A DNA stretch of 46,467 nt, from positions 7,742-54,208 of the forward strand of contig CAZSVL010000007.1 of NCBI GenBank assembly GCA_964610305.1. Reading direction: 5' to 3'. Every line of letters starts with the position of its first letter. Position 1 is the first letter of the stretch. This DNA comes from an uncultured Gammaproteobacteria bacterium (lineage in GTDB: Bacteria > Patescibacteriota > Patescibacteriia > Magasanikbacterales > JBBTXJ01). The translations under genes were made by a program, and so were the position numbers. A model generated the notes under the pieces. That model had not been told where the DNA came from. It was given only the letters and a program-made list of their open reading frames with translations, and did no database searches. This document shows positions 26,620 to 28,396 of this stretch, in pieces.

Positions 26620-27387
26620 TTAAGCGTTATGCATGGTTAATAATTCTCTGGCAAGCCGATCATACGCGCGCGCTCCCTTGCCATGTGGATCGTACGCTAA
26701 AATGCTCTGTCCGTAGCTGGGCGCCTCTGCCAAACGCACCGTCCGCGGAATAACGGATCTAAAAATACTACCAGGAAAATGCCGATACAACTCTTGCCAT
26801 ACCTCTGTTGAGAGTTTTGTGCGGGTATCAAACATAGTCAGCAGCGCACCATTAATCTTAAGCTCTGGCTTAATGTGCTCCTGAATAAGTTTGATGGTCT
26901 CCAGCAGCTGTCCCAAACCCTCTAGCGCGTAATACTCCGCTTGCACGGGAATCATAATTTCATCTGCCGCCACAAGGCCATTAATAGTTAAAAGCCCCAG
27001 AGACGGCGGAGAATCTATGATTACATAATCATAGGCGTGATGAACCTCTTGCAGCACGTCATACAATCTATGCTCACGTCTATTTTCATTCACGAGCTCA
27101 ATATTTGCGCCGGCCAAATCCTGCGTGGCGGGAATAAGACGCAGCCCATCATGTAAAGAATTACGAACCACCTCTCTCATTCTCTTGTTCCCCACAAGCG
27201 CTTCATAAAGACCGTGCTGCAAATCATCTTGCCTAAAGCCCATACCCGCCGTAGCGTTTGCCTGAGGATCCAAATCTACCAGTAACACAAAACGCCCGTG
27301 CTCAGCCAAAAAAGCAGCAAGGTTCACGGCTGTTGTAGTTTTTCCCACTCCTCCCTTTTGGTTGACAACCGAGATGATCTTTGCCAT
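26620..27387 (-). CDS. parA: chromosome partitioning ATPase ParA/Soj
   Basis: NQKGGVGKTT, DLDPQANAT, DSPPSLG, LAEAPSYG. Confidence 0.97.
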   Translation of the reverse strand: MAKIISVVNQKGGVGKTTTAVNLAAFLAEHGRFVLLVDLDPQANATAGMGFRQDDLQHGLYEALVGNKRMREVVRNSLHDGLRLIPATQDLAGANIELVNENRREHRLYDVLQEVHHAYDYVIIDSPPSLGLLTINGLVAADEIMIPVQAEYYALEGLGQLLETIKLIQEHIKPELKINGALLTMFDTRTKLSTEVWQELYRHFPGSIFRSVIPRTVRLAEAPSYGQSILAYDPHGKGARAYDRLARELLTMHNA

Positions 27388-27447
27388 AATATGGTGGCAT
27401 TATAGCATACGCAGTTGTCAGCTGTCAGCTATCGGCTTTAAGAAAAT

Positions 27448-27540
27448 GCCGCGGTGGCGGAATTGGTAGACGCGCTGGACTCACCATGAACCACAAGGGT
27501 TCATGGTGTCCTGCACCCTTGTGGTGCAGGACAAAATCCA
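27448..27540 (+). pseudogene. 5' half of tRNA-Leu with two hairpins inserted in the anticodon loop
   Basis: 27445-27483 is identical to 27787-27825 (39 nt). The hairpin insert follows, then CAAAATCCA resumes the tRNA sequence. Confidence 0.8.
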
Positions 27541-27545
27541 ATACT

Positions 27546-27788
27546 ATGCATTACGTGTATGTCTTAAAACTCAGCAACGGTCAATATTATGCAGGATCCA
27601 GTGGTGACCTCAGGCAAAGAATATTGCAACATAAAAACGGCAAAGTACAAAGCACTCGCCATCGCAGACCCATAACACTTGTCTTCTATGAAGCTTTCTT
27701 ATCAAAAGAGGACGCTTTGAGAAGAGAGAACTACTTCAAAACATCAAAAGGTAAAACAACTTTACGCATCATGTTGCGTAACACATAA
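27546..27788 (+). CDS. small GIY-YIG nuclease (UPF0213/SLX1-like)
   Basis: YVYVL..YYAG..DLRQRI.QH..G...T, YEAF..A..RE.YFK; 80 aa from ATG 27546. Confidence 0.9.
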   Translation: MHYVYVLKLSNGQYYAGSSGDLRQRILQHKNGKVQSTRHRRPITLVFYEAFLSKEDALRRENYFKTSKGKTTLRIMLRNT

Positions 27789-27789
27789 T

Positions 27790-27874
27790 GCCGCGGTGGC
27801 GGAATTGGTAGACGCGCTGGACTCAAAATCCAGTGAGGGTAAACTTCGTGAGAGTTCGAGTCTCTCCCGCGGCA
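27790..27874 (+). tRNA. tRNA-Leu(CAA)
   Basis: GCCGCGG/CCGCGGC acceptor, CTGGA-CTCAAAA-TCCAG anticodon arm, long variable arm, GTTCGAGTC. No encoded CCA. Confidence 0.95.
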
Positions 27875-27898
27875 CAAATGACAAACACAGGAGACAAC

Positions 27899-28396
27899 AT
27901 GGAGACTATAAGCGAGGGAACCGTAGGATCTCTTGCGGGTATTAGCGTTGGCATGGGACAAATCAGCATGGGTACATACACGCTACCAGATGGCACCGCT
28001 AAACAAGGATTGTCGGCAACTATAGCTCCTTTTGATTCAGAAAAAAATATTCCTGTAGGAGCCGGCAGCAAAGTGGTCGTGGGTGATGTTCTGTGGCATG
28101 TCGAGCAAATCATGAAAGTTGACGACACGCCTGGCCATATCCGCCTGAAGCCACTGCACGCGGTAAAACCGACAAACGGCAACACCGTAAGAGCAGAGGC
28201 ACTGGATATGACCTACAAAAAAGACTGCGTACGCTGTGGTCATGATGCCGGTTGGAGTGGTAAGATAGAAAAACACGGAAGAGACATTCATATGATTTAC
28301 TTTTGCACGCAATGTCAACTGGACTATTCCAGCATGGATGGGTCCCTTCAACGGCAGCTCAAAAAAAATCCTCCGGTTTTTAGACCAGGAGCATAA
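27899..28396 (+). CDS. hypothetical protein with a C-terminal CxxC...CxxC zinc ribbon
   Basis: AGGAG before ATG 27899; CVRC and CTQC. Confidence 0.7.
   Translation: METISEGTVGSLAGISVGMGQISMGTYTLPDGTAKQGLSATIAPFDSEKNIPVGAGSKVVVGDVLWHVEQIMKVDDTPGHIRLKPLHAVKPTNGNTVRAEALDMTYKKDCVRCGHDAGWSGKIEKHGRDIHMIYFCTQCQLDYSSMDGSLQRQLKKNPPVFRPGA

Follow-up and report, generated by a model that had tools for sequence, protein, structure and literature searches.

GIY-YIG nucleases that lie beside RNA genes or DNA hairpins have been described in several settings. SegB, a GIY-YIG enzyme of phages T4 and T6, is reported in the accessible text of PMC2330249 to leave mostly 2-nt 3′ ends. The Ssn enzymes (SsnA, cd10448) are accompanied by NTS/SRM hairpins, in a hairpin-gene-hairpin layout that has been likened to an insertion sequence (Chenal et al. 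2025, PMC11893778); the discussion of that paper raises a comparison with RAYT/REP systems, and tRNA goes unmentioned in its main text. Mobile double-hairpin elements are known from the mitochondrial DNA of Allomyces (Paquin et al. 2000, as cited in the accessible portions of PMC3787672 and PMC2800124), and GIY-YIG open reading frames (ORFs) are found in rRNA insertions of the candidate phyla radiation (CPR), where they were judged, in the part of PMC11270868 available, to fall outside spread by homing. Here we describe a cassette of 342 nt at a tRNA-Leu(CAA) gene of an uncultured member of the Patescibacteriota (GenBank assembly GCA_964610305.1, contig CAZSVL010000007.1, positions 7,742 to 54,208 of the forward strand; this whole stretch of 46,467 nt is called the window, and positions given without a contig are those of the window). 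The cassette brings together an 80-amino-acid GIY-YIG gene, an inverted hairpin doublet and a spare 5′ part of the tRNA, and it is very probably an inserted, mobile and selfish element. A literature search without most subscription journals or supplements found no published description of bacterial tRNA-resident GIY-YIG/hairpin cassettes.

Anatomy of the tRNA-Leu(CAA) cassette

The cassette is located between the tRNA-Leu(CAA) gene and its probable promoter. Its outline is given by a 39-nt exact direct repeat on the forward strand, 27445-27483 and 27787-27825, the two copies being 100% identical and spaced by 342 nt. The first-pass annotation of this DNA had read it as a duplicated tRNA 5′ half, and the repeat scan bears this out. 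Each copy comprises three leader bases and tRNA-Leu nt 1-36. Copy 1 is the old 5′ part, referred to here as the ghost, and it stops after the first two anticodon bases (CA). Copy 2 is the leader and 5′ part on the cassette side and serves as the 5′ part of the working gene, an intact tRNA-Leu(CAA) at 27790-27875 (forward strand) recognised by ARAGORN and by Rfam (61.4 bits against a gathering score of 29). A second direct repeat of 9 nt, CAAAATCCA, occurs at 27532-27540 and 27824-27832. Because it recurs at 27532-27540 (forward strand), where it continues the ghost with nt 35-43, the ghost copy can be followed as far as tRNA nt 43. Read in order, the ghost consists of a 3-nt leader, tRNA nt 1-36, 48 nt of hairpins and nt 35-43, and five bases (ATACT) separate its end from the ATG of the nuclease gene. 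The non-coding share of the 342-nt unit is 102 nt.

Inside the anticodon of the ghost lies the hairpin doublet (27482-27533, forward strand), which was delimited by the repeat scan, by folding and by an alignment of seven copies. Its two members, H1 (27482-27508) and H2 (27507-27533), are perfect hairpins with 11-nt arms and 5-nt loops. CA stands on either side of the doublet and TG between the hairpins, so that the annotated pair of anticodon hairpins with a CA duplication was recovered, and direct reading agrees with the annotation that the two loop regions are exact reverse complements. Both hairpins are variants of a single unit, CCCNGNACC-loop-GGTNCNGGG, and since H2 is an inverted copy of H1, the element is a REPIN-like doublet. 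When a 63-nt stretch was folded as DNA, its energy was -22.4 kcal/mol, compared with -8.8 ± 2.07 kcal/mol for shuffled sequences (z = -6.57; 0 of 200 shuffles as good). The seven aligned copies have a mean identity of 79%. In this alignment 97.1% of the cells are paired and 9 of the 20 pairs have changed on both sides, values reached by none of 500 shuffles; the few odd pairs in the table, in which an excess of G-U or of C-A might separate an RNA from a DNA role of the hairpins, did not look one-sided by eye.

The gene that follows (27546-27788, forward strand) encodes a stand-alone GIY-YIG protein of 80 amino acids which is UPF0213/Slx1-like by Pfam, PDB, AlphaFold2 and Foldseek comparisons. 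As annotated, its stop codon (TAA, 27786-27788) overlaps repeat copy 2. Pfam PF01541 (GIY-YIG) is matched with E = 1.9e-14 (54.1 bits against a cut-off of 22.6), residues 1-70 falling on profile positions 1-74 of 78. The catalytic set of GIY-YIG enzymes consists of the Tyr of GIY, the Tyr of YIG, an Arg, a His and a Glu. Residues Y3, Y5, Y15, G17, R25, H29 and E61 are kept in 154-160 of 161 homologues and, judging by these catalytic residues, the protein is probably an active enzyme. The closest PDB entry by sequence is 1zg2 (UPF0213 protein BH0048; E = 3.6e-10), with EF2693 (1ywl) also among the nearest. The AlphaFold2 model (pLDDT 94.6) has strands at residues 2-8, 14-19 and 44-51 and helices at 22-30, 54-65 and 67-78, giving a three-stranded sheet with flanking helices as in the GIY-YIG superfamily. 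Foldseek ranked the known structures in the order UPF0213, Slx1, HIGLE, I-TevI and UvrC; entry 1zg2 was found at 40% identity (E = 2.2e-5), and Slx1 chains came next with TM-scores of 0.59-0.69 on the query. Identity to the longer GIY-YIG genes of the same genome (about 95 amino acids) is 31-35%, compared with 46-49% within the protein's own group. By sequence and predicted fold, the protein thus appears closest to UPF0213/Slx1-type nucleases and is not demonstrably an Ssn enzyme.

Pfam and the AlphaFold2 model find the catalytic domain only, with no added DNA-binding domain in the 80 residues. A model with two copies of the protein reached an ipSAE of 0.76, against 0.00 for the best control, with a partner pLDDT of at least 92 and agreement between runs in 100% of contacts. 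The mark used for a dimer was reached by 20 of 30 homodimers and 1 of 23 monomers, a rough calibration since the own alignment was used. The modelling supports a symmetric homodimer as a prediction, with an interface at residues 46-53, 55-56, 60 and 76-80.

Empty sites, recurrence and paired hairpins

A 1.8-kb query around the locus recovered the parA neighbour in 40 of 40 relatives searched, and 11 of the resulting loci were examined. In ten of these the site is empty: parA is followed, at a distance of about 29-200 nt, by an intact tRNA-Leu(CAA) without a GIY-YIG gene. In the eleventh (G012), the tRNA is interrupted by masked letters, and tblastn found the nuclease at 0 of the 11 loci. The first-pass annotation had proposed an integrase-free element of about 340 bp that targets tRNA genes, and an insert of about 342 bp in the tRNA gene agrees with these empty sites, with the failure to find a tyrosine recombinase on the window's contig, and with the lack of any match to the Y1 transposase family (PF01797) in the genome, which is 99.6% complete. 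That genome does carry two tyrosine recombinases, both on other contigs. An integrase island with an att duplication was considered for this locus and rejected, given that the contig has no recombinase and that the repeat is the 5′ part of the tRNA.

Two cassette-free relatives (G026 and G020) have a tRNA-Leu whose nt 1-45 are identical to those of the window, only the variable arm differing. In another relative, G039, a 13-nt 5′ stub of tRNA-Leu with a hairpin, and no ORF, lies about 70 nt before the intact gene; by its sequence, this stub looks like a relic of the same type of event at the same gene. Two further loci (L106 and L028) have this site occupied, also with parA upstream.

The arrangement recurs within the window's own genome (1.09 Mb in 26 contigs), where there are 13 GIY-YIG matches, including one UvrC-like gene, five genes of about 95 amino acids and six short ones of about 80-88. 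Four of the six short genes adjoin tRNA-Leu, -Cys, -Ile and -Ser, the copy at tRNA-Ser being decayed by stop codons; one lies in the 23S rRNA and one on contig C8 without an RNA gene nearby. At each of the four tRNA loci, a piece of the same tRNA is split by two GC-rich hairpins. Under uniform placement, the probability that at least four of six short genes fall within 50 nt of a tRNA is 1.6e-7, and none of the five longer genes is found at a tRNA. A genome-wide search for tRNA pieces gave partial copies beside their own tRNA at 11 loci, including gene-less ones at tRNA-Thr, -Lys and -Gly, where a second hairpin family is inserted at nt 10/11. The short gene in the rRNA (C3:102115-102372; L004:1501-1758) is an ORF in the loop of a 23S rRNA helix with the stem CCCCCACGT...ACGTGGGGG, and the Rfam large-subunit model spans the whole locus.

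Protein pattern scans extend this count to other genomes and show the family to be widespread. They covered species-representative genomes (three-sequence query; 80 of 132 relatives kept) and metagenome contigs (80 of 202 kept). A tRNA lies in the flank of 42 of the 80 species-representative loci, the nearest one being on the strand of the ORF in 42 of 42; for the metagenome loci, which have shorter flanks, the figures are 23 of 80 and 22 of 23. A same-strand tRNA within 150 nt is present at 54 of the 160 loci, with the ORF before the tRNA in 42 and after it in 12. Partial tRNA copies were found nearby in 31 of the 42 and 4 of the 12, which are undercounts because diverged stubs (L105, L106 and L028) were missed. 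The ORF frequently extends into the tRNA by 10-36 nt. Among the 38 tRNA-less loci of the species-representative set, two have the ORF inside the 5′ region of the 16S rRNA (L079 and L103) and one has it 165 nt after a tmRNA gene. Of the best loci per genome in same-order relatives, 14 of 17 at 37% identity or more have a tRNA on the same strand no more than 150 nt away, as against 0 of 10 below that value. Whether counted in the window's genome, over the 160 loci or among same-order relatives, small GIY-YIG genes beside interrupted tRNA pieces, which the annotation had singled out for counting, are strongly enriched.

The kind of tRNA entered follows the phylogeny of the gene. In a FastTree tree of 161 proteins, built from a short alignment and with many unresolved forks, tRNA type changes 24 times, compared with a mean of 45.4 (minimum 40) over 500 shuffles of the 60 labelled rows; this comparison is not a probability, as related rows share labels. 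The window's gene belongs to a starred clade whose six members are all located at tRNA-Leu. Nine rows at tRNA-Gln are likewise grouped in a starred clade, and a clade of 71 rows is almost wholly without tRNAs. As far as this tree can be read, the target tRNA type appears heritable along clades of the gene.

The hairpins follow the gene as well. In a covariance model of the doublet, for which five of the matching copies were training copies, the doublet was found among the 160 loci only beside Leu-clade genes (L025, L028, L105, L106, L114 and L152), with weak matches beside two sister rows. The doublet is nearly two-fold symmetric; its two strands score within 1-25 bits under the model, and orientation relative to the gene is unreadable. 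In the window's genome the doublet is complete at one further place, the T-loop of a 3′ stub of tRNA-Glu (C3:76932-76994), and there is a weak match, a single hairpin that precedes the 5′ end of the 16S rRNA gene by about 40 nt (C18:7813-7875, locus L186). By the same model the doublet is present in 7 of 60 relatives, with many copies in G009, G040 and G059. Counting both strands, there are 20 matches in G040 and 25 in G009 (about 10 sites each), and in both genomes the gene that best matches the window's nuclease has a doublet 10-12 nt ahead of it. Co-occurrence at the level of genomes is not clean among the 60 relatives: G015 has a 49% homologue and no hairpin match, and in G059, where hairpins are present, the best homologue reaches 40% only; the pairing is read from adjacency and clade tracking instead. 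The four hairpin families beside four nuclease genes in the window's genome are all different, the window's family accompanies the Leu-clade gene in at least six other genomes or metagenome contigs, and a palindrome of its own, at nt 12, is conserved in the tRNA-Gln clade. Because the hairpin family tracks the nuclease clade with compensatory changes, hairpin and nuclease look like a cognate pair, a pairing that we consider fairly probable. The annotated analogy with RAYT/REP systems suits the hairpins, which form an inverted doublet, occur elsewhere without the gene and track the nuclease clade.

Other forms of the hairpins can also be seen. Single units are found in relatives between genes, in terminator-like positions and, in G009, in frame in two protein genes. 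Of the latter, L237 (G009 C1:125947-126012) lies apparently inside a tyrosine-recombinase-like reading frame and L238 (G009 C15:26137-26185) apparently inside an isoleucyl-tRNA-synthetase-like one, both read by eye from the translation. On metagenome contig L114 (1191-1494), an intact tRNA-Leu(TAA) is followed by a tandem pair of 120-nt units, each with a doublet and then tRNA nt 35-87, from which it follows that doublet-split tRNA copies can be amplified in tandem.

Insertion points fall in tRNA loops or at stem borders: the anticodon (35/36), the D-loop (21/22), nt 9-13 and the T-loop. In each of the five anticodon insertions, the doublet has the leading anticodon dinucleotide on both sides, which is CA in the three CAA genes and TA in the two TAA genes, and the linker between the hairpins is the complement of this dinucleotide (TG or TA). 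Two T-loop copies are likewise flanked by CA. To judge from these sequences, the flanking dinucleotide looks like a 2-nt target duplication; none was found at the D-loop (L105 and G040) and nt 12 (L025) insertions. The tRNA piece between the hairpins and the gene measures 2-15 nt in 23 of 24 ORF-side stubs, with L083 (38 nt) as the exception and L057, which has two inserts, left out of the count; for this reason the hairpins sit just before the ATG.

The ghosts can themselves be compared with the tRNAs they adjoin. In the window, the ghost matches its own intact tRNA at 43 of 43 positions, compared with 33 of 44 in L106 and 33 of 43 in L028. The ghosts of these last two loci are nearer to the window's tRNA type than to the adjoining intact tRNA, and L028 retains an 11-nt start of that older tRNA after its ORF. 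By their sequence, both ghosts appear to be the remains of replaced, different tRNA-Leu alleles. Gene-less forms at three tRNAs in relatives consist of tRNA nt 1-21, the doublet, nt 22-29, about 27 nt and then the intact tRNA. The split tRNA piece, the hairpins and the gene are one recurrent module; the hairpins are not accessories in a chance duplicate. A hairpin-less family member at the start of a gap (GAPDH-like) gene (L070:1447-1837) lies within an exact 38-nt duplication made up of the first 30 nt of the gene and 8 leader nt, which is the same spare-part logic at a protein gene.

Several other features lie around the cassette. A promoter-like site on the forward strand (27362-27390; TTGACA, 17 nt, and CATAAT with TG; 11 of 12 matches) overlaps the start of parA, which is on the opposite strand. 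The region has 4 such sites, compared with 0.6 expected from shuffles. In relatives, the counterpart of this stretch lies about 30 nt upstream of tRNA-Leu, and the site is probably the native tRNA-Leu promoter, as its position suggests; no plus-strand terminator was found between it and the tRNA. A palindrome at the 3′ end of the ORF (27762-27781, no strand assigned; 10-nt arms, no spacer, 90% complementary) has a terminator-like score on the minus strand only. Directly after the tRNA-Leu, at 27899-28393 on the forward strand, lies an ORF of 165 amino acids with CxxC...CxxC-like cysteine pairs in its C-terminal part, for which no Pfam match was found.

Elsewhere in the genome, about 25 same-strand tRNA genes form an array at C3:73798-77535. 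Among its members are a further tRNA-Leu(CAA) and a tRNA-Gly(TCC)-like copy of full length, into which the second hairpin family is inserted at nt 10/11. Elements of about 80-125 nt follow tRNA genes at C1:223138-223372, C2:37336-37501, C3:77177-77384, C4:46333-46516 and C4:46843-47015, and on C12 downstream of tRNA-Ser. They have a T-arm-like start (GGGTTCGA...), a structured insert and a copy of the last 17-19 nt of the tRNA, and are of a different type from the cassette; at tRNA-Ser(GGA), two stand in tandem. At C4:47106-47600, a tyrosine recombinase gene adjoins tRNA-Arg(TCT), with a 17-nt duplicate of the tRNA 3′ end about 157 nt downstream, and this locus may be a remnant of a classical integrated element.

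Spread of the cassette and rival explanations

Insertion with empty sites, recurrence, heritable targets, a doublet that tracks the gene's clade, the intact tRNA and the decay products together argue for a selfish cassette with a paired nuclease and hairpins and a spare tRNA part. We hold this explanation as a whole with moderate confidence, without choosing at this point between homing-like repair and single-strand transposition as the way in which it spreads. From 5′ to 3′, the cassette consists of the hairpin doublet in the old anticodon, a few old tRNA bases, the nuclease gene, and a replacement leader with the first 36-43 tRNA bases, and the replacement 5′ part joins the resident 3′ part to give an intact tRNA. 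The nuclease would be expressed from the tRNA promoter, and RNase P would free the tRNA from the same transcript. The co-variation of hairpin and gene suggests that the doublet would be the nuclease's own DNA site, like SRM for Ssn and REP doublets for RAYTs. A nuclease dimer, itself symmetric, would take as its substrate either the doublet with its two-fold symmetry or the tRNA loop that matches it. The dimer would break a cassette-free tRNA gene, and repair would copy from a cassette-bearing copy, using the two tRNA halves as homology arms; the host would survive because the cassette carries the displaced half of the gene. Subsequent decay or deletion of the nuclease gene would leave the hairpin-split tRNA stubs. 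Break-and-copy is favoured because it accounts for the ghost alleles, for the exact start of the spare part at the tRNA 5′ end and for the conserved junctions. This choice of homing-like break repair over transposition is a tentative one, to which we would give somewhat less than an even chance.

A number of observations weigh against this explanation. An 80-amino-acid single domain is too small for a classical homing enzyme that reads a long site, although a homodimer, as modelled, might compensate for the absent DNA-binding domain. Most of the family, 101 of 161 members, is not at tRNA genes, and only 7 of the 35 loci with a strong upstream hairpin have no tRNA nearby. In the second hairpin family of the window's genome (four copies at tRNA nt 10/11) the geometry is reversed, and the tRNA piece that comes after the hairpins is long. 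Hairpin-split pieces also lie beside intact tRNAs without a nuclease gene, at tRNA-Thr and -Leu in G040, at tRNA-Leu in G059 and at tRNA-Cys, -Thr and -Lys in the window's genome, so the duplication needs no gene in cis. Protection of the cassette's own allele is a further difficulty: the old copy is disrupted by the doublet, whereas the working tRNA shows no protective change, its nt 1-45 being those of the cassette-free relatives, and a nuclease that cuts this sequence in double-stranded DNA would cut an essential gene of its own host. Vertical descent with repeated loss is possible at the parA/tRNA-Leu locus, since both other filled sites have parA upstream as well. The nearest cassette elsewhere has 57% protein identity in species-representative genomes and 63-64% in metagenome contigs, and a best match of only 63-64% gives no indication of recent transfer or movement. 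An empty or joined form is likewise missing from the one sample.

Hairpin-guided transposition of single-stranded DNA, in the manner of IS200/IS605, RAYT/REP and Ssn, is less likely, yet it is the main rival to break repair. Here the nuclease would bind the hairpins in single-stranded DNA and cut at their base, so that the doublet alone, or the doublet with the gene and the tRNA 5′ part (342 nt), moves and is pasted into a tRNA-gene hairpin loop exposed by replication or DNA uptake, the tRNA duplication being moved along or made at insertion. Cuts after '...ACTCA' in both repeat copies would free exactly 342 nt. The REPIN-like inverted doublet, its gene-less occurrence on C3 and C18 of the window's genome and at the many sites of G040 and G009, the preference for tRNA loops or stem borders, and the single units in frame in G009 protein genes all suit such a mode. 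It would also remove the immunity problem, as double-stranded tRNA genes are left uncut. Moreover, the Ssn family, the only stand-alone mini GIY-YIG enzymes to be characterised, cuts single-stranded DNA beside a hairpin and is flanked by its own hairpins (PMC11893778, in the text available). A simple cut-and-paste unit, however, leaves unexplained the short tRNA piece that follows the hairpins in 23 of 24 stubs. The target sequences vary among copies, strand bias is unreadable in so symmetric a doublet, and the protein is nearer to UPF0213/Slx1, with the low identity to the longer genes given above. A bolder proposal is a cleave-and-rescue drive on tRNA genes by a hairpin-directed mini-nuclease distinct from Ssn. 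The dimer would read the doublet or a tRNA-gene hairpin loop and break the resident gene inside the anticodon, leaving the doublet there, and only the cassette's 5′ half would rescue the gene; each clade would have its own hairpin and tRNA target. We regard this as doubtful, and if true it would offer a large natural library of small, structure-guided, site-specific DNA nucleases.

Hairpins and gene might instead be two unrelated layers, with a SegB-like free-standing homing gene beside its tRNA target and host REP-like repeats that later colonised the dead stub, where they do no harm. Similar units, found in relatives between genes, at terminator-like positions and within protein genes, indicate that the hairpins move on their own; essential tRNA copies would not tolerate them, leaving them visible only in dead copies, and most family members away from tRNA genes have no hairpin. 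We nevertheless find this improbable, because one host family would be expected where there are four beside four genes, because one hairpin family accompanies the Leu-clade gene across its other genomes and contigs, because the hairpins stand at a non-random distance from the gene-side end of the stub, and because the genome lacks a Y1 transposase. Service to the host is more improbable still. A nuclease of the Slx1/UPF0213 type could act on hairpin or cruciform DNA, or one like SsnA could limit the uptake of foreign DNA, the stubs being by-products of breaks. The fold is indeed closest to UPF0213 and Slx1, the catalytic residues are conserved, and SsnA has a host-level role in Neisseria transformation (PMC11893778, in its accessible part). 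Against this, the gene is missing from the site in 10 of 11 relatives and is distributed patchily, 22 of 61 related genomes being without a match at E <= 1e-5, the tRNA-Ser copy is decayed and gene-less relics exist, so that gain, decay and loss follow the pattern of selfish genes.

Care must also be taken to ensure that the locus is real and of the type supposed. In Logan, the only run with the sequence gives three contigs (27100-27472, 27454-27816 and 27807-28200) at depths of 7.64, 7.4 and 7.3, and this equal depth fits one cassette copy per genome. The contigs break at the 39-nt repeat, as expected of a 31-mer assembler; the order of the pieces rests on depth and unique extensions, since no contig spans the repeat with at least 31 letters on both sides, and the run is no independent support, since it may be the source of the window's DNA. 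No joined (empty) form or variant was found in the contigs of this one, possibly source, run, which is no evidence of absence. Two other runs (X2 and X3) contain only tRNA-Leu pieces of other organisms. An assembly artefact, which the first-pass annotation had allowed for, is therefore not supported by depth. The one circumstance in its favour is that the repeat is longer than the assembler's word, and contigs break there; the equal depth, the unique extensions of the middle piece and the presence of the same layout in dozens of independent assemblies make an artefact scarcely credible. The same holds for a tRNA intron or split tRNA: nothing of the 3′ half of the tRNA is present in the ghost, and behind it stands an intact gene, so that no splicing or joining is needed, and Rfam gives one tRNA only and no intron family. 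A test for joinable halves of a split tRNA failed, as the upstream copy ends at nt 43 and an intact tRNA follows. A group I intron was rejected along with the tRNA intron and the split tRNA, given 102 nt of non-coding sequence, no Rfam intron family and no upstream 3′ half.

If the selfish explanation is true, mobile elements of about 300-350 bp would have colonised essential tRNA genes that many bacteria, and most of all the small-genome Patescibacteria, possess in a single copy. These cassettes would be among the smallest mobile elements known to us and would enter an essential gene by bringing a spare part. They would explain the 'ghost' tRNA halves and hairpins at tRNA loci in Patescibacteria genomes, and would give a function to part of the large uncharacterised UPF0213-like group. 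They also raise the question of how an 80-residue nuclease finds its site. The paired nucleases and hairpins could serve, like the Ssn enzymes, as small site-specific DNA cutters.

The cassette compared with known systems

SegB shares several features with the cassette, as far as the available sources describe it. In both cases, a GIY-YIG gene lies among or next to tRNA genes, outside introns, and its presence varies among related genomes. SegB spreads with flanking tRNA sequence, as the cassette may also do, and its 2-nt ends match the 2-nt duplication seen here. SegB comes from phages and has additional DNA-binding parts, whereas the cassette protein is an 80-amino-acid catalytic domain alone, on a bacterial chromosome. 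Unlike SegB, the cassette lies inside its target gene, duplicates part of that gene and carries hairpins, and nt 1-45 of its tRNA show no resistance polymorphism.

The best sequence and fold matches of the cassette protein are to UPF0213 (BH0048 and EF2693) and Slx1. No function is known for the UPF0213 proteins. Slx1 cuts branched and hairpin-like DNA, substrates which would fit a hairpin-directed enzyme; in contrast to the cassette protein, it has an added RING domain and a Slx4 partner.

Mobile ORFs of fungal mitochondria provide a likeness in the spare part. There too, an ORF for an endonuclease inserts itself into a gene and brings along a second copy of the part it displaces, the old part being left as a stub. 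The Allomyces atp6 'hybrid gene' is reportedly such a case, in which a mobile mitochondrial GIY-YIG ORF brought a replacement piece of the host gene. The same genomes harbour mobile double hairpins that are short and GC-rich, according to the accessible sources on Allomyces mitochondrial DNA. These systems differ in residing in organelle genomes and in targeting protein genes, and we know of no description from fungal mitochondria of a fixed pairing of hairpin and ORF in one module. The rRNA insertions of the CPR come from the same bacterial group as the cassette and resemble it in placing GIY-YIG ORFs in non-intron inserts of structural RNA genes; unlike the present work, the available text of PMC11270868 has no mention of tRNA and describes neither hairpins nor duplication of gene parts.

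REP/BIME doublets (REPINs) with RAYTs, and IS200/IS605, are alike in using an inverted hairpin doublet as the repeated unit, in having the nuclease gene in single or low copy beside one doublet, and in having gene-less copies elsewhere. The nuclease of the cassette is of the GIY-YIG and not the HUH/Y1 type, unlike that of the RAYTs. Its hairpins also differ from REP sequences in their very low copy number in the window's genome (two full matches and one weak) and in having tRNA genes as targets, with part of the gene duplicated.

The Ssn enzymes, as described in the portion of PMC11893778 available, are likewise stand-alone mini GIY-YIG proteins with GC-rich hairpins beside the gene and scattered elsewhere, the type of hairpin co-varying with the enzyme. 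Both are single domains, of 80 amino acids in the cassette and about 90-100 in Ssn. The SRM flank the Ssn gene, often on both sides, whereas the hairpins of the cassette are upstream only and inside a tRNA piece. No CGTC-type tag, as found in Ssn, was seen by eye in the seven aligned doublet copies, for which no dedicated search was made. The cassette protein, unlike Ssn, is nearest to UPF0213/Slx1 by sequence and fold. Among the systems compared, namely SegB-type genes, Ssn, REP/RAYT, mitochondrial GIY-YIG ORFs with the Allomyces hairpins, and the CPR rRNA ORFs, the cassette stands apart as the one that unites a mini GIY-YIG gene, a putatively cognate doublet and a spare tRNA part.

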